DNA from: Alphaproteobacteria bacterium
GTDB lineage: Bacteria; Pseudomonadota; Alphaproteobacteria; UBA9219
Reading direction: 5' to 3'
DNA: 64,000 bases
NCBI GenBank assembly: GCA_009779135.1
Contig: WREW01000004.1
Span: 13,448-77,447, forward strand
The position numbers and the translations under genes were made by a program. Of the stretch, positions 5,203 through 64,000 are shown one piece after another. How positions within the stretch are numbered: the first letter of the stretch is position 1; every line of letters starts with the position of its first letter. The notes under the pieces were generated by a model that saw only the letters and a program-made list of their open reading frames with translations, was not told the DNA's origin and did not search any database.

Positions 5203-5344
5203 CGTCATCCGCGCGGGCTTGCGAAGCAAGCCACAAAAAAACTGTCATCGGCAGGAAGGCCTTCAGGCTTGACGCGGCAATCTCTGCAACATCGCCGAGA
5301 TTGCCGCGTCAAGCCGGCTACGGCCGTCTTTCCTCGCAATGACA
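5203..5344. repeat. Composite palindromic element: left half of a family-A repeat (5203-5232) plus a full family-B repeat (5243-5344)
   Basis: TGTCATCGGCAGG...CCTCGCAATGACA ends; perfect 16-bp internal stem TTGACGCGGCAATCTC/GAGATTGCCGCGTCAA; similar to the reverse complement of 61613-61708; lies between convergent phasin and mscS. Confidence 0.88.
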
Positions 5345-7787: not shown

Positions 7788-8501
7788 ATGGTCAATCCCT
7801 TTATGCCCTCCACCAGCACGTCAACGCGGACGATCACGCTTGACCAGGGCCTGCGGCAACATATGATGCGCGTTTATAACTATATGGGCATCGGCCTTAT
7901 CCTGACGGGCCTTGTCGCTTATATTGTTGCCAACACGGCGCTTGCGGGCCTTATCTTCGGCGGCAACAAGCTTGTGGCCTACGCGGCAATGTTCTCCCCG
8001 CTTGTCTATATCATGGTCATGAGCTGGAAGATGCACAAAGTATCCGCCTCAACAGCCCAGACGCTTTTCTGGGGCTTTTGCGCGCTGATGGGCCTTTCCA
8101 TGAGCACCATCTTTCTGGCCTTTACGGAAACCTCGATCGCGCGGGCGTTCTTTATCACAGCCGGCACCTTTATGGGGATGAGCCTTTGGGGCTACACAAC
8201 CAAAAAAGATCTGACGAGCATGGGATCCTTTTTGATGATGGGCGTGATCGGCATCCTTCTCGCCATGATCGTCAATATTTTCATGCAGTCCGATATGATG
8301 CAGTGGATTGTCTCGGTTCTCGGCGTTGCGATCTTTACGGGTCTGACGGCCTATGACACCCAGAACATCAAGCGCTCTTATAGCGAAAGGCTTCCTCAGG
8401 AAACCAACAACAAGCTCGCCGTGATGGGCGCGCTGCGTCTTTATCTGAACTTCATCAACGCCTTCCAATTCCTCCTCAGCCTGATGGGGAATAGGAACTG
8501 A
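7788..8501 (+). CDS. Bax inhibitor-1/YccA family membrane protein
   Basis: DQGLRQHMMRVYNYM, AYDTQNIK, GALRLYLNFINAF; GAGGA RBS. Confidence 0.93.
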   Translation: MVNPFMPSTSTSTRTITLDQGLRQHMMRVYNYMGIGLILTGLVAYIVANTALAGLIFGGNKLVAYAAMFSPLVYIMVMSWKMHKVSASTAQTLFWGFCALMGLSMSTIFLAFTETSIARAFFITAGTFMGMSLWGYTTKKDLTSMGSFLMMGVIGILLAMIVNIFMQSDMMQWIVSVLGVAIFTGLTAYDTQNIKRSYSERLPQETNNKLAVMGALRLYLNFINAFQFLLSLMGNRN

Positions 8502-8515
8502 AATCAACGCATAAC

Positions 8516-8550
8516 AAAAGGCCCGTAAAGTTTCTTTGCGGGCCTTTTTT
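8516..8550. terminator. Bidirectional intrinsic terminator
   Basis: AAAAGGCCCGTAAAG-TTT-CTTTGCGGGCCTTTTTT between convergent genes. Confidence 0.85.
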
Positions 8551-8564
8551 ATTTCATGAGCCTG

Positions 8565-9242
8565 TTATTGTATGCTGAGGACTTGGAAGAAATAATATCC
8601 TTCGGGCACGTTATTGCTGTCATCAAGGCGCACACAGCCCATCTGCTTGCCGCGTAATTTTAACGGCCAAGCATCCGTGGCATCCATCGCAAACTGCTCT
8701 TGTGAGGTAATATCGCCAAGCGAAACGCGCGTACGGTTAAGGTCGTTGATGTCGATCTGGGCAAGTCCGACAATGCGGGAATTGATTTCATCACAAACGC
8801 CCTTTTGAACGCGCAGCATGGCAACGCGCGAACCGGCACCGGTACCAAGACGCGGAATAGCAATCAAGGGGAAATGCCATTCATCCGTAGTCGGATCAGC
8901 CCCCATGGTCGTCGAAGGCGGCGAGATTCCGCCACCGATCGGTGAAAAAAGATCCTCAGGCTGACTTGTTGAATCGGGGTCAATCCGGATGTCTGAAATA
9001 TCGATGCCATTGGACATGATGCGGTCAAACCCGATCCTAAGAGTTTGCCCGATATCCACCAAAGCAGCAGCCTTGGCGCGGTTGCCTTCACTTGTCGCGT
9101 TGGTTGTAAACGAGCCGCTGCCGGCCGCGATCGCCGCAGCCAAAATCCCCAGAACGGCGATGATGAACAAAATAGGGCCAATGGCAATACCAGCATCGCG
9201 ATCGAACCGCTGTTCGTCTTGAGATGATGGTATATAAAGCAT
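8565..9242 (-). CDS. Atypical type IV pilin-like protein (no Glu+5)
   Basis: RDAG|IAIGPILFIIAVLGILAAAIAAG resembles a class III signal peptide; two Cys in the C-terminal domain; last gene of the filament operon; alternative start 9278. Confidence 0.65.
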   Translation of the reverse strand: MLYIPSSQDEQRFDRDAGIAIGPILFIIAVLGILAAAIAAGSGSFTTNATSEGNRAKAAALVDIGQTLRIGFDRIMSNGIDISDIRIDPDSTSQPEDLFSPIGGGISPPSTTMGADPTTDEWHFPLIAIPRLGTGAGSRVAMLRVQKGVCDEINSRIVGLAQIDINDLNRTRVSLGDITSQEQFAMDATDAWPLKLRGKQMGCVRLDDSNNVPEGYYFFQVLSIQ

Positions 9243-17323: not shown

Positions 17324-17587
17324 GCTTTTTCCTAACACCACGAAAAAGCGACTTGGTTTGCCAAAAACCTTTGCCACCCAATAGCCGCAATGTAAGCGTG
17401 AGTTCGGTTTATATTTCGTTAACTGTTCTTAAAGGACTCCGATGGCGGCCAAACTGAGTCTTTCGTGCAACAATGGCCAAGCCCCTATTTCCATAAAAAT
17501 ATTGTGCCATCATATTTTTAGGAAATATCCATTATTAACAAGGCCCGCCCAAACCCCTTACCTAAAAGCTAACAGAAAACATCAATA

Positions 17588-17603
17588 TTAACAAAACATT
17601 AAC
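17588..17603. promoter_or_regulatory. Consensus CtrA box
   Basis: TTAA-CAAAACA-TTAAC in the divergent intergenic region upstream of the secretin operon. Confidence 0.65.
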
Positions 17604-17702
17604 CGATCTTTTCTGTAGCGCAACTATTATCCACATGCTAGGGTATTTCCTACAGCCCAACAAGCCCCATAAAAGCATTTGAACAACCCACAGGAGGACG
17701 TT

Positions 17703-18581
17703 ATGTTTAAAGGAATTGATAGAGCAACAGAAACCCTCTCCATGTTTCCGCTTGCCCTTTGCTGGACTAAAGAAATGCCTTTGAAAGACTACAAATACAT
17801 CTGCAGCTTCAGAGCACCGCCTGGGGAGTATAGCATGATAGAGAACAGCCGTCGTGGCAGGGTCTATCAAGTGCCGGACGGGCAGTTGTATTTTGCGGAT
17901 GCTATATTTATTCAAGGCGACTCCTTAAAATCAAGCAGATTTTACATTCGTGAACTGGGCTTTCAAAAGCTTCGCGCTTTGCCTGCAAAAAACAAATGGG
18001 GCCACCCTAGTCCGAATGAATGGGAAGAACTCAAGGCCAATCTGGACGGCCCTGCCCCTGAAAACGTCAAAAACGATTTGCGTGCGCTTTTGAAGAATCC
18101 TGAAGAATGGCAGCCATCCAGATCACTTTACCAGACCTATGAAGAGCTATGTAAAGTATTAGGTATTCAAGCATTAAGCCTTCAGTTGGAAGACTACAAA
18201 TATATCTGCAAGTTCAGAGCGCCGCCTGATGAATATAGCATTATGGAGAACAACCATCGTGGCGTGGCCCTTCAAACGCCGGACGGTCAGTTGTATTTCG
18301 TAGATGTTGACGAACTCCGCTACGATCCAGGCCCAAGCAGATATCACTTTCGTGAACTAGGCATTCAAAAGCTTCGCGCCTTGCCTGCGGAAGGTAAGAG
18401 GAATCGCGTTAATCCGAATGAGTGGGAAGAACTCATGGCCAATCTGGACGGCCCTGCCCCTGAAAACGTCCGAAGCGATTTGAGCAAACTTTTTAGGAAT
18501 CCCGAAAAAGTACACAGATTAATTATCGAGATGTATTATCGGGAGCCGCCTTGTAAGCCTAAAACATTAAGCCTTCAGTAA
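17703..18581 (+). CDS. Hypothetical protein built of two tandem ~135-aa modules
   Basis: GGAGGA RBS before ATG 17703; modules LKDYKYICSFRAPP...PDGQLYF...ELGFQKLRALPA...NEWEEL.ANLDGPAPENV repeated. Confidence 0.8.
   Translation: MFKGIDRATETLSMFPLALCWTKEMPLKDYKYICSFRAPPGEYSMIENSRRGRVYQVPDGQLYFADAIFIQGDSLKSSRFYIRELGFQKLRALPAKNKWGHPSPNEWEELKANLDGPAPENVKNDLRALLKNPEEWQPSRSLYQTYEELCKVLGIQALSLQLEDYKYICKFRAPPDEYSIMENNHRGVALQTPDGQLYFVDVDELRYDPGPSRYHFRELGIQKLRALPAEGKRNRVNPNEWEELMANLDGPAPENVRSDLSKLFRNPEKVHRLIIEMYYREPPCKPKTLSLQ
17781..18578 (+). repeat. Diverged tandem direct repeat: 405 nt (17781-18185) + 393 nt (18186-18578)
   Basis: Copies start TTGAAAGACTACAAATA / TTGGAAGACTACAAATA and both end CATTAAGCCTTCAG. 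Confidence 0.92.
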
Positions 18582-18605
18582 CCGCTATCAAAACAGGAGA
18601 TAACG

Positions 18606-19445
18606 ATGCCGAAGGCTGGCCTTACTGCGGTCCGGTTCCGCAATCAAATTGTCAAGGTCATTTATCGTGTCGGCTTAAAAAGAGCCATGGCGCATTTGTC
18701 GACAGGGATCGCCTATTCCGGCCCTTTTTTCAATTATGTTGGCATTGTTGATGATAACAATACCAAAAAATCAGAAAGGATGGCGTTGCGTCTTCATGCT
18801 TCGCGGATCAATGATACTTGGATTGCGCGAAATCTTTCCAAAGAAAAGCGGGCCAATTATTTCCAACCCGTTTACGAAAAACTTATCAAACATCCAGACG
18901 ATTCAGCCAAGCTGGATGAGGTGCTCCAAGCTGCTTACAACACAGTATGGGGCGGTGTTTCAATCGAGTTTGCAAAGCTGCCTTTTAAGGAAATCGCAAC
19001 GGCTGTTTGCGGCGCGGCCAAAAAACAAGTCTTTTTCCGCTATGAATTGCCTGTTCTTGTCCAGAACCCGCATATTCAGGCTTGCAATGAAATCCCGATG
19101 GACGCCGTTCGCCGTATGTATAACGAAGTCGGAAAAGATGAAGCCTATAATCTTATTTGTTTGTCGGAACTTCGTATGGCTTTCCGTTATGCGTCCGGCT
19201 TTGTGCCAAGCCCCCACCTTGCGTGGAAAGATTTTGTTGACCGCATATATTTCCATCGGGACGAACGCTTCCACACGGCACCAAAGAGAAGCCCGCTCAC
19301 AACGGAGCAAGAACAACGCAAGCAACAGATTATTGCAGACTTCGGTCTTGACACCCTCTATGCAACATCGCCTGTGGCATGGGGTGGCCCTGTCGCTGTG
19401 ACCAAAAAATCCAAAGCTTTACCTTATAAAAAAATTACCCTATAA
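18606..19445 (+). CDS. Hypothetical protein (279 aa)
   Basis: AGGAG RBS, long open frame in an AT-richer segment; no motif recognised. Confidence 0.75.
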   Translation: MPKAGLTAVRFRNQIVKVIYRVGLKRAMAHLSTGIAYSGPFFNYVGIVDDNNTKKSERMALRLHASRINDTWIARNLSKEKRANYFQPVYEKLIKHPDDSAKLDEVLQAAYNTVWGGVSIEFAKLPFKEIATAVCGAAKKQVFFRYELPVLVQNPHIQACNEIPMDAVRRMYNEVGKDEAYNLICLSELRMAFRYASGFVPSPHLAWKDFVDRIYFHRDERFHTAPKRSPLTTEQEQRKQQIIADFGLDTLYATSPVAWGGPVAVTKKSKALPYKKITL

Positions 19446-19446
19446 T
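19418..19446 (+). promoter_or_regulatory. Putative sigma70 promoter for the downstream structured RNA
   Basis: TTTACC-N17-TATAAT; the -10 overlaps the stop codon of 18606..19445. Confidence 0.55.
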
Positions 19447-19452
19447 AACCCC

Positions 19453-19634
19453 GCTGCGGAAGTGATGACCGTGGTGAGGTGTGAATCCCTCTAAAGGCGT
19501 TTGCGCAAAACGTAAAACCGCGCGCTTCCAGCTATGACTGGAGCGCGTGAATACGCCGCTTGCGGTCAATAAGCGCACTACTACCTTTAGTAGGATTCAA
19601 GCTCCAGTCGCCTTTCATCACGGCGACTTTTTTT
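19453..19634 (+). ncRNA. Putative ~180-nt structured ncRNA, rod with central bubble (6S-like candidate)
   Basis: Nested stems TGAATCC/GGATTCA, CTAAAGG/CCTTTAG, TGCGC/GCGCA, CGCGCGC/GCGCGTG, TCCAG/CTGGA; promoter upstream and terminator downstream; identity not confirmed. Confidence 0.6.
19606..19634 (+). terminator. Intrinsic terminator
   Basis: AGTCGCC-TTTCATCAC-GGCGACT followed by a T7 run. Confidence 0.8.
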
Positions 19635-19655
19635 ATGAGCTGAAAGATAAGCGCC

Positions 19656-19874
19656 GTGACCTTTAAAAATCTCTCTTTGCTTTTGGTTTTGTTGTCAGGC
19701 TGCGCGCCCGCCATGGACAGGGGCCAAATTGAATCCGCCTTCGGGCCGCCTGACATGATGCTGCGCATTGATGATGGCGACACAAAAGTTACCTACAAAC
19801 GCACCACCATCACCATCATCTATGACAAGAACGACAAGGTCAAATCAGTCAGGGGGGATGACCGTAAGAAATAA
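19656..19874 (+). CDS. Small lipoprotein (SmpA/OmlA-like motif)
   Basis: Lipobox LSGC; QIESAFGPPD motif followed by short beta strands. Confidence 0.65.
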   Translation: MTFKNLSLLLVLLSGCAPAMDRGQIESAFGPPDMMLRIDDGDTKVTYKRTTITIIYDKNDKVKSVRGDDRKK

Positions 19875-19955
19875 CAAGTAAAAAAAAGGAGCTTGTGTTA
19901 TCAGGCATGGGATTTTATGATAACATTCAAACTTTTAAGACAAAGGATCTTCCCC

Positions 19956-20552
19956 ATGCCTCACATCCATAAGCGCACGCGCGGCTTTACCCTGATGGAA
20001 GCTGCTATTGTCCTCGGTATTATCGGCTTGATTACCGCAGGCATCTGGGTCGCCGCAGCCGCTGTCCTCAAACAGAAAAGAGTAACGGAATCCTACGGCA
20101 TATTGATCCAGATTTCACAGAACATGCGTGCCCTTTACGAAAAACACCCCTATTTTTCCAGATTTTCCCCGGGTGAGGACATCACAGTTCCCATGCGTCA
20201 AGCAGGTGTATTTCCGGCAGACCTGTTTGCAAGCGCGGCTGACAATGTCCCGCGCAACCCTTGGAACACGCCCATAAGCATCACGGTCGGCCCGTCAACC
20301 GGCGTTTCGCCGCCCCATAGCTTTATCGTCACCTTCGAGCCTGTGCTGGCTTTTGACGACTGCGCCAAGTTGGTTCTGCTGGCCACAGGCCCCTCGGGCC
20401 CGGGGGGGATTGATGCCGTCATCATGAACGGAGGCCCCACCATCGAAGCCGTGGATGCCGACAATCCGAACAACAGAAACAACAACTTGCGCAATCTCAC
20501 GCTGCGCCAGATCACAGGCTGCCGTGGTGTCGGTTTCCGTTTAAGGCTTTAA
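19956..20552 (+). CDS. Type IV pilin with canonical N-terminal methylation motif
   Basis: KRTRG|FTLMEAAIVLGIIGLITAGIW; RNPWNTPISI; two Cys; AAGGA RBS before ATG 19956. Confidence 0.88.
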   Translation: MPHIHKRTRGFTLMEAAIVLGIIGLITAGIWVAAAAVLKQKRVTESYGILIQISQNMRALYEKHPYFSRFSPGEDITVPMRQAGVFPADLFASAADNVPRNPWNTPISITVGPSTGVSPPHSFIVTFEPVLAFDDCAKLVLLATGPSGPGGIDAVIMNGGPTIEAVDADNPNNRNNNLRNLTLRQITGCRGVGFRLRL

Positions 20553-28451: not shown

Positions 28452-28525
28452 CCTGTCCCCCCATCATAATGCGGCCATGGAATATAACATAAAACGCGCC
28501 AGAAAAAAAGGGCTGCGCCCTCTTT

Positions 28526-28617
28526 TTTGTCATCCTCGGGCAACCGCAAAGCGGTTGAACCGGGGATCTGACGTCAGATCCCCGGGTTCTTGCTTCGCAA
28601 GCCCCGAGGATGACAAA
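28526..28617. repeat. Family-A palindromic repeat
   Basis: 15-bp terminal inverted repeat TTTGTCATCCTCGGG/CCCGAGGATGACAAA; central perfect palindrome GGGGATCTGACGTCAGATCCCC. Confidence 0.92.
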
Positions 28618-39924: not shown

Positions 39925-39935
39925 TTCTATTTTCC

Positions 39936-40034
39936 TGTCATCCTCGGGCAACCGCGCAGCGGTTGAGCCGGGGATCTGACGTTAGTCCACCGTCAGATCC
40001 CCGGGTTCTTGCTCCGCAAGCCCCGAGGATGACA
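39936..40034. repeat. Family-A palindromic repeat
   Basis: TGTCATCCTCGGG...CCCGAGGATGACA; GGGGATCTGAC-11 nt-GTCAGATCCCC. Confidence 0.92.
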
Positions 40035-40042
40035 AAAAGGAG

Positions 40043-57343: not shown

Positions 57344-57420
57344 GGGAAGCTCCTTTGATAGAGAAAAATGATGCATTCACTTATACACAAAAAGCTTAAG
57401 AAAAACTTTCTACCCCCTCT

Positions 57421-57592
57421 TGTCATCCTCGTGGCTTGCCTGCCGACAGGCAGGCAAGAGCACGGGGATCTGACGGTAGGGAAACGTGAGTCGAGCGTCA
57501 GATCCCCGGTTCAACCGCTTCGCGGTTGACCGAGGATGACAAAGGAAAGACAGAAAAGCGCCCCATCCAGCGGAAAGCACCGAGGATGACAA
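57421..57592. repeat. Family-A repeat (57421-57541, reverse orientation) with an inserted hairpin, plus an extra right end (57581-57592)
   Basis: TGTCATCCTCG...CGAGGATGACA; GGGGATCTGAC-22 nt-GTCAGATCCCC; CTTGCCTGCC-GACA-GGCAGGCAAG. Confidence 0.9.
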
Positions 57593-57608
57593 GAAAGGGA
57601 AAAGAAGA

Positions 57609-58034
57609 TCAATGCCCGCCCGGCACCACGGAAGAGTGATGATCTACAATCATCCAGCCAAGAGGCGTTTTCTTGTAAACAAAACTGAAACGCGCTGGCG
57701 CTGTAACATCCTTGCCGTCCTTTTTGAACGTAAAGGTGTAAAGGCCGCTATTGATGGCCACATCGCCGAAAACGCGCGTATGCAGCTCGGTCACTTTGCC
57801 TTGAAGATTTTCATTGGCCGTAAACACCTTGAAATAACCAAGACGCTTGGCCGCCGTTTCATGAACGCCAGGCGCTAAAGTCGGCAGCAAAACAGCGTCA
57901 TCCGCATAAAGCGTCATCACCGCATCAGGCGAGCCGGAGCTGACAGCTTTAAGCCATGTCGCAAGCGCCGCTTGAACTTCTTGCACTTCATCCACATTGT
58001 GACTGCAACAGCAGCCGCTTGAACATCCACTCAT
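57609..58034 (-). CDS. SnoaL/NTF2-like (DUF4440/SgcJ-EcaC-type) protein
   Basis: LYADDAVLLPT, FGDVAINSGLYTF, ARFSFVY...WMIVDHHSS. Confidence 0.85.
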   Translation of the reverse strand: MSGCSSGCCCSHNVDEVQEVQAALATWLKAVSSGSPDAVMTLYADDAVLLPTLAPGVHETAAKRLGYFKVFTANENLQGKVTELHTRVFGDVAINSGLYTFTFKKDGKDVTAPARFSFVYKKTPLGWMIVDHHSSVVPGGH

Positions 58035-61529: not shown

Positions 61530-61612
61530 TGGTCTTACAGGAGATTAAGGGGTGGCGCAACGCCCCATTATGCTTTTTCATTTCCACACACCACTGTCAT
61601 TGCCGCCCCCCT

Positions 61613-61708
61613 TGTCATTGCGAGGCGGGCCGCAAGGCCCAACGAAGCAATCTCAGCGATGTTACAGGGATTGCCACGTCAGGCCTAAAGGCCTTCCTCG
61701 CAATGACA
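61613..61708. repeat. Family-B palindromic repeat overlapping the HAD gene 3' end
   Basis: TGTCATTGCGAGG...CCTCGCAATGACA 13-bp terminal inverted repeat; GCAATC...GATTGC core; extra TGTCATTG at 61595. Confidence 0.92.
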
Positions 61709-62371
61709 GGGTTCTTGGATCCCCGCACATAACAACCTCGTTATGCCCATCACATCAGGCACGATAAAGGTCGCGCCGGCGTTTTTTAATTCTTCCTCGC
61801 TGCCATACCCATATAATACGCCGACAGAATCCATGCCGACCTCTTTAGCTCCGATGATGTCGTGTTTCCTGTCGCCTATCATGATAGAGCTTTCGGCCTC
61901 TATGCCTGTTTCTTTGAGAACATGCCTTAAAACATCACTCTTTTTATCACGGCTGCTGTCAAGCGAAGCGCCTGCGGCAAAATCGAAAAGTTCCGTTATG
62001 CCTTCATACGCAAGGATCTGTTTGGCGAAAGGCTCAGGCTTTGAGGTCGCAAGCATTATTTTTTTACCCGCGCCTTTCAGAGCCTTCAACATATCCACCA
62101 TGCCCACATAAGGCACGTTTTGCTTAACGCCTATATCTTTGTAAAACTCGCGGTACTTTGCGATGGCGGTTTCCGTATCTTCGCTGTTCATCCCGTAATA
62201 TTGGGAAAAACTCTCCCGAAACGGAGGGCCGATAAACTTATACAATTCCTCAACAGGAGGAATGACAATACCAAAATGACAAAGAGCGCATTTCACCCCG
62301 TTTGTTATGCCCTCAACCGGATCTACCAGCGTCCCGTCCAGATCAAAAATGACATTCTGATAGTCCTTCAT
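61685..62371 (-). CDS. HAD-superfamily hydrolase (phosphoglycolate phosphatase/5'-nucleotidase-like)
   Basis: FDLDGTL, FIGPP, ATSKPE, MIGDRKHDIIGA, YGYGS.EEL. Confidence 0.92.
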   Translation of the reverse strand: MKDYQNVIFDLDGTLVDPVEGITNGVKCALCHFGIVIPPVEELYKFIGPPFRESFSQYYGMNSEDTETAIAKYREFYKDIGVKQNVPYVGMVDMLKALKGAGKKIMLATSKPEPFAKQILAYEGITELFDFAAGASLDSSRDKKSDVLRHVLKETGIEAESSIMIGDRKHDIIGAKEVGMDSVGVLYGYGSEEELKNAGATFIVPDVMGITRLLCAGIQEPCHCEEGL

Positions 62372-63938: not shown

Positions 63939-64000
63939 TGGTGCGGGCAGCCGGACTTGAACCGGCACGCCATGAACTGACTTCAGATTTTAAGTCTGAT
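63939..64000 (-). tRNA. tRNA-Leu(UAA), 5'-truncated by the window edge
   Basis: Minus strand TCAGA-CTTAAAA-TCTGA anticodon arm, long variable arm, CCGG-TTCAAGT-CCGG T arm, encoded CCA. Confidence 0.93.

Follow-up and report, generated by a model that had tools for sequence, protein, structure and literature searches.

Some small RNAs of the 3' untranslated region (3'-UTR) type, such as DapZ and MicL of the enterobacteria, have an internal promoter of their own; these work through Hfq by means of a single-stranded seed. The gene for 6S RNA, a different kind of bacterial small RNA, usually lies in proteobacteria beside a gene for 5-formyltetrahydrofolate cyclo-ligase. The 6S molecule is built of a closing stem, a 5' central bulge with a hairpin opposite it, G-C pairs at the edges of the bubble and an apical stem that ends in a loop (PMC8414754, PMC4064990). 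Here we describe a candidate RNA gene of about 180 nt, running roughly from 19453 to 19630-19634 on the + strand, next to the pilin gene in an uncultured alphaproteobacterium from a termite gut, in a 64,000-nt stretch of contig WREW01000004.1 (hereafter the window); all coordinates are those of the window, on the + strand unless marked. A first-pass annotation, made from the letters alone, had read this element as a relocated and divergent 6S RNA or else as a new small RNA (sRNA) or an attenuator controlling the downstream lipoprotein and pilin genes. Our analysis indicates that the observation is real and the structure well defined, that the two specific interpretations, 6S RNA and attenuator, are not supported, and that the element may tentatively be regarded as a lineage-specific, stand-alone sRNA gene that would share its terminator with the genes upstream.

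The candidate consists of the following predicted parts, given in order along the window with the two hairpins nested in the rod listed after it:

19401-19446, + strand: promoter region, an A/T-rich stretch with a -35 hexamer TTTACC (19418-19423), a 17-nt spacer and a consensus -10 hexamer TATAAT (19441-19446).
19452-19476, + strand: 5' hairpin P1, whose 8 bp include 3 G-U pairs and whose 9-nt loop is AAGUGAUGA; it starts at the predicted transcription start.
19478-19603, + strand: rod of 126 nt, whose closing stem pairs 19478-19506 with 19573-19603.
19519-19549, + strand: apical hairpin of 12 bp, in which one U is bulged and the loop is CUAUGA; -19.4 kcal/mol.
19556-19565, + strand: small hairpin CCG-CUUG-CGG, a CUUG tetraloop closed by a G-C pair, on the 3' side of the junction; pair probabilities 0.88-0.93.
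19606-19634, + strand: intrinsic terminator, in which the 7-bp stem AGUCGCC/GGCGACU closes the 9-nt loop UUUCAUCAC and is followed by a T7 run.

Both the promoter-like site and the hairpin with its T7 end had been proposed in the first-pass annotation, and both are present. In a promoter scan the site TTTACC-N17-TATAAT (19418-19446) agrees with the consensus at 10 of 12 positions, the -10 hexamer being perfect; only 8 sites as good occur on both strands of the 64 kb (128 kb of strand). The -10 hexamer shares bases with the TAA that ends the upstream open reading frame (ORF) of 279 aa, p279, and the site would place the start of the RNA at about 19453. The terminator hairpin, at -10.6 to -10.9 kcal/mol, is comparable to the few other good intrinsic terminators of the window, for example those at 8545, 45307 and 54509; a ready-made terminator scan overlooked it because that scan allows loops of at most 8 nt. 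Between promoter and terminator no + strand ORF is longer than 27 codons, and the sole leader ORF is of 10 codons, with a poor ribosome-binding site. The locus thus shows, as in silico signals, the combination generally looked for in an sRNA gene: its own promoter, an intrinsic terminator and no ORF between them. P1, the rod and the terminator hairpin are packed tightly, with linkers of 1-2 nt.

All the stems listed in the first-pass annotation lie at the positions given there: CCGTGGTGA (19469-19477) with TCATCACGG (19615-19623), TGAATCC (19482-19488) with GGATTCA (19593-19599), CTAAAGG (19491-19497) with CCTTTAG (19584-19590), and UGCGC (19502-19506) with GCGCA (19573-19577). The minimum free energy (MFE) of the whole element on the + strand is -74.8 kcal/mol (z = -5.65), a value that none of 200 dinucleotide shuffles equalled, and the main helices form with pair probabilities of 0.9-1.0. 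Those of the apical hairpin are close to 1.0, apart from the U-A pair next to the bulge (0.5). P1 is made strand-specific by its three G-U pairs, with an energy of -10.1 kcal/mol on the + strand vs -3.9 on the - strand and pair probabilities of 0.82-0.89. Between the closing stem and the apical hairpin the 5' side reads AAAA-CGUA-AAAC (19507-19518) and the 3' side AA-UACG (19550-19555), the CCG-CUUG-CGG hairpin and UCAAUAA (19566-19572). Both the A-rich 5' side and the CUUG hairpin of the asymmetric bubble described earlier are therefore present, but the bubble itself is half closed: a CGUA/UACG helix forms across it with a probability of about 0.5, so that the "central bubble" is better termed an A-rich three-way junction.

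The loops of the first and last hairpins are complementary to each other, GUGAUGA of P1 (19462-19468) and UCAUCAC of the terminator (19615-19621) matching over 7 contiguous Watson-Crick pairs. Such a match has a probability of 0.0006 among random 9-nt loops, or 0.009 if the composition of the loops is preserved. As several features were inspected, the match is only suggestive, and what it suggests is a kissing contact between the two loops rather than a switch. A near-repeat of the P1 loop, GUGGUGA, stands at 19471-19477.

Taken together, these features favor an RNA gene: a 10/12 promoter is followed on the same strand by 180 nt free of ORFs and then by a hairpin with its T7 run, a strand-specific hairpin sits at the predicted +1, and its loop complements that of the terminator over 7 nt. 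The similarity of p279 to its family, in protein and DNA alike, stops at about 19400, and its last 14 codons are unrelated to that family, which sets the promoter-plus-RNA segment apart from the p279 gene. We propose that transcription would begin at the element's own sigma-70-type promoter, within the last codons of the upstream ORF, and would end at an intrinsic terminator common to the upstream two-gene module, whose transcript the terminator would end too; the layout would be that of 3'-UTR-type sRNAs having their own promoter. The resulting RNA would be almost fully paired, from a 5' hairpin at the start site through a 126-nt rod with an A-rich three-way junction to the terminator hairpin, and the loops at its two ends might kiss. 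Of the earlier suggestions, that of a new sRNA is the one that still offers the best reading, on the strength of predicted signals.

Several results weigh against an RNA gene. The promoter consensus used is of the E. coli type and may not be that of this alphaproteobacterium. Measured against the background of the window (3192 windows, MFE regressed on GC content), the fold lies only about 2.5 standard deviations below expectation; it is among the best non-repeat folds of the window but ranks under several palindromes resembling miniature inverted-repeat transposable elements (MITEs). The rod alone is equally stable on the two strands (-53.1 vs -52.4 kcal/mol), so the choice of strand is left to P1, the T-run and the G(CUUG)C tetraloop, which occurs on the + strand only, and a palindrome at the level of DNA would explain the rod as well. 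The candidate sequence is present only in the termite-gut metagenome DNA runs X1 and X2, whose contigs are identical, and none of the RNA runs contains it. Among possible trans targets in the window the longest complementarity is 12 nt, which is at chance level.

The candidate is also a single-copy orphan within the searches made. Pattern and repeat searches found no second copy in the window, and the contigs of four termite-gut runs (X1-X4) hold none at least 80% alike over 19450-19634. No homologue appeared by blastn against PLSDB and INPHARED (plasmids and phages), with four exact or degenerate patterns in IMG/VR, with one junction pattern in the JGI metagenomes, by blastn and nhmmer in 22 related loci, or with a covariance model of the rod in 278 kb of loci, and none of the p279-family neighbourhoods, hpnC-anchored loci or loci with the pilin-promoter motif (see below) carries it. 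Should the element be transcribed, its few unpaired bases and the lack of above-chance target complementarity in the window make a stable protein-binding or structural RNA more likely than a classical seed-pairing sRNA.

By its hpnC-anchored loci the organism is placed among the uncultured Alphaproteobacteria. In the nearest metagenome-assembled genomes, compared through loci anchored on hpnC (HpnC 56-64% identical), the gene order is a type IVb pilus cluster with a secretin gene on the minus strand, then the pilin gene, then hpnA-hpnC-hpnD-hpnE. Although the proteins of these relatives are only about 60% identical, a nearly invariant element of 26-28 nt, GTTGATAATTCGTTAACTTGTCTTAAGG, stands between their secretin and pilin genes, 44-54 nt ahead of the pilin start codon; it probably serves as promoter or operator of the pilin gene. 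The window holds a variant of it, GTTTATATTTCGTTAACTGTTCTTAAAGG, at 17407-17435, which contains TTAAC-N5-TTAA, and here the pilin gene starts 2520 nt after the conserved motif. The features concerned are:

17436-19892, + strand: lineage-specific extra DNA of about 2.45 kb, between the pilin-promoter motif and the pilin gene.
19956-20552, + strand: PilS-like type IVb prepilin gene, identified by Pfam N_methyl and PilS and by synteny, with hpnA-hpnC-hpnD-hpnE directly after it.
Copies of the GTTGATAATTCGTTAACTTGTCTTAAGG element in other loci: L009 7198-7225; L016 about 2162-2189; L010 about 8368-8396; L006 about 8500-8527; L018 1876-1901.

The extra DNA comprises, in order, a 240-nt AT-rich spacer, a 300-aa ORF that we call dup300 (17679-18581), p279 (18606-19445), the candidate RNA and a lipoprotein ORF (19656-19874), and its GC content is 0.40-0.52 vs 0.55-0.56 in the flanking genes. 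The dup300 ORF consists of a unit of about 150 aa duplicated in tandem and in frame, its DNA repeats (17781-18107 and 18186-18509) being 81% identical. Its single-unit homologues always lie upstream of p279 homologues, and the pair of 150-aa and 279-aa genes is often cargo of tRNA-integrase islands (L002, L004); none of the compared loci that carry this pair elsewhere has the candidate RNA. Neither dup300 nor p279 has a match in Pfam, PADLOC, PHROGs or the PDB, and neither a PDB profile search nor an AlphaFold model (mean pLDDT 55) yielded anything usable for p279. The lipoprotein ORF encodes 72 aa from a GTG start, with a signal peptide and the lipobox LLSGC; gene callers recorded only a 53-aa version of it without the signal peptide, and neither a word-indexed search nor phmmer against 1.84 billion representatives found a homologue.

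Two further observations concern these loci. In the metagenomic relative L018 (1-1900) a motif variant like that of the window adjoins convergent rnc and lepB instead of pilin and hpn genes, so the linkage of secretin, pilin and hpn genes is not universal in this group. In L001 (760-4029) cas9 is the immediate neighbour of one homologue of this gene pair (150 aa and 279 aa), probably by a coincidence of island cargo.

The alternative that survives best, although we consider it less likely, dispenses with an RNA gene altogether: the element would be a structured 3' end or terminator region, or an imperfect palindrome at the level of DNA, left at a recombined junction of mobile DNA, and the promoter match would have arisen by chance in AT-rich sequence. 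The arms of the rod are inverted repeats with the strand symmetry described above, and the rod is placed exactly at the break in p279-family homology, at about 19400, inside a low-GC insertion that the relatives lack. That the candidate was an orphan in all searches and that the genome has other long palindromic elements with even better folds also accord with this explanation. Against it, the sequence occurs once in the window, and no other piece at least 80% alike exists in the source metagenome contigs; being single-copy and an orphan argues against a MITE. The boundaries of the surrounding insertion share no direct repeats of at least 8 nt, and no target-site duplication is seen by eye at the rod flanks (GGTG / AGCT). 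A scar would also not be expected to have a strand-specific 5' hairpin or loops that complement each other, nor does the close packing of promoter, +1 hairpin, rod and terminator, with its 1-2-nt linkers, fit one well.

The palindromic repeats of the window include two families. The MITE-like family with the ends TTTGTCATCCTCGGG...CCCGAGGATGACAAA has copies at 28523-28617, 39931-40036 and 57412-57615, which are among the stablest folds of the window. A second family, GTCATTGCGAGG...CCTCGCAATGAC, occurs in the window at 5234-5309 and 61610-61717 and in L006 at 8590-8695, where the copy occupies the position of the pilin gene in the other relatives and no pilin gene is detectable. The repeat families GTCATCCTCGGG and GTCATTGCGAGG of the window have no terminal motif in common with the candidate.

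Quite improbable, in our judgment, is a cis-acting leader or attenuator, in which transcripts from the 19418 promoter or from upstream would either stop at 19634 or read on into the lipoprotein, pilin and hpn genes, depending on whether the terminator or the outer stem forms. The candidate does lie upstream of the lipoprotein and pilin genes on their strand, and a terminator loop of 9 nt may cause leaky termination. Two mutually exclusive folds had been proposed at the outset, and the 9-bp alternative pairing between 19469-19477 and 19615-19623 does exist, in an alternative fold that is only 3.5 kcal/mol less stable. That pairing is nonetheless at chance level: the best duplex between the flanks, at -17.1 kcal/mol, is hardly different from the mean of shuffled flanks (-16.9), 42% of the shuffles are as good, and in the ensemble the alternative pairing has a probability of 0.07 against 0.89 for the terminator. 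A sensor domain is likewise missing, in that no riboswitch or leader family of Rfam matched and no collection searched contained a homologue; nor does the leader contain any ORF but that of 10 codons mentioned above. Furthermore, the pilin gene of the relatives has a leader of 44-54 nt without any such element. Between the terminator and the pilin gene there is just one weak promoter-like site, TTGTGT-N17-TATGAT (19893-19921), a match of 8/12 found by eye and not reported by the promoter scan. Scarce as such sites are there, this one stands about 35 nt ahead of the pilin start codon and could drive the gene directly, freeing pilin expression from the terminator at 19634. The notion of an attenuator for lipoprotein and pilin is accordingly not supported.

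Very unlikely, and the most novel of the readings considered, is that the element represents an undescribed structural class of RNA, acquired horizontally, in which a rod with an A-rich three-way junction would be clamped by kissing between the 5' hairpin and the terminator. Such a molecule might be a stable RNA that sequesters protein, possibly by binding RNA polymerase in the manner of 6S RNA, or the segment might serve as an insulator and re-promoter module, rewiring pilin expression after mobile DNA had split the pilin gene from its conserved promoter.

The least probable of the readings set out here is that of a 6S-like RNA, divergent or acquired horizontally, which would bind RNA polymerase holoenzyme as a mimic of an open promoter. 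Its coarse anatomy does agree with that of 6S RNA: some 180 nt with a closing stem, an A-rich bulge on the 5' side that faces a hairpin (19556-19565), and G-C pairs flanking the bubble (PMC8414754, PMC4064990). In the candidate the pairs GCGC/GCGC and CGCGCGC/GCGCGUG flank the junction, but these are generic features with little discriminating power. Of the parts of a promoter mimic it shows the closing stem and the A-rich bulge, yet the CGUA/UACG helix leaves that bulge half closed, and the apical arm, at 31 nt and 12 bp vs about 70 nt in the Rfam consensus of RF00013, would by the promoter-mimic model be too short for the contact equivalent to the -35 region. The search against RF00013 and all other families that had been suggested as a check was carried out on 451 nt and 189 nt. 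Among the matches listed down to about 10 bits, RF00013 gave no alignment for the candidate, whereas E. coli ssrS, used as a control in a search of the same size, scored 139.8 bits against a gathering score of 46.4 bits. These permissive searches returned only noise of 10-20 bits (frnS at 20.5 vs a gathering score of 60, mir-362 and others), and at gathering scores Rfam 15 found nothing in the whole window but a truncated tRNA at its end. The first-pass annotation was right that no 5-formyltetrahydrofolate cyclo-ligase gene adjoins the candidate, the neighbours being p279, the orphan lipoprotein ORF and the pilin gene, and this, together with its absence from the syntenic loci of relatives, speaks against a relocated 6S gene. 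By covariance model the candidate does not belong to the 6S family, and a 6S-like mode of action, for which we find no support, is at most a remote possibility.

The truncated tRNA just mentioned is the 3' part of a tRNA gene on the - strand (63942-64000) cut by the window end; it scores 32.3 bits with Rfam, and ARAGORN does not call it. Other classes were considered for the candidate and rejected: a retron msr-msd (neither a reverse transcriptase nor msr hairpins between flanking repeats), an integron attC site (no RYYYAAC / GTTRRRY ends), a TnpB/IscB guide RNA (no such nuclease), a type I toxin (no short hydrophobic ORF), and a tRNA or tmRNA.

The practical outcome of this work is negative, in that the 6S and attenuator readings both fail their tests, and no long-standing question is opened; from a single sequence no evolutionary support for a function can be obtained. 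If the transcript is real, the stand-alone sRNA gene that we tentatively favor would add one more lineage-specific small RNA, that of an uncultured termite-gut alphaproteobacterium, and the locus would show how a new promoter and terminator accommodate foreign DNA between the pilin promoter element and its gene.

The candidate may be compared with several known systems. With ERIC, Correia and MITE-like palindromic intergenic repeats it shares an imperfect palindrome of about 126 bp, an intergenic position and equal folding on both strands, and it differs from them in being single-copy in the window and the source metagenome contigs and in having no target-site duplication discernible by eye. 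With 6S RNA (SsrS, RF00013) it shares a length of about 180 nt and a rod that has a closing stem, a 5' bulge rich in A, a small hairpin on the opposite strand and G-C pairs at the bulge. It departs from 6S RNA in having no covariance-model match, an apical arm less than half as long and a bubble that is partly a three-way junction, and further in having, outside the rod, both a 5' hairpin and an intrinsic terminator hairpin of its own and in sitting within a lineage-specific insertion. The "tuning fork" of the purine-riboswitch type, in which two hairpins of similar length stand by a junction and are joined through kissing loops, offers an analogy that is geometrical only: in the candidate two hairpins, of 8 and 7 bp with loops of 9 nt each, flank the base of a rod and have loops complementary over 7 nt, but one of them is the terminator, and there is no similarity in sequence or by covariance model. 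DapZ, MicL and sRNAs of their type differ from the candidate in that it is almost fully paired and has no above-chance target complementarity in the window; with them it would share both a promoter placed within the final codons of the ORF upstream and a terminator common to it and the mRNA of that ORF.

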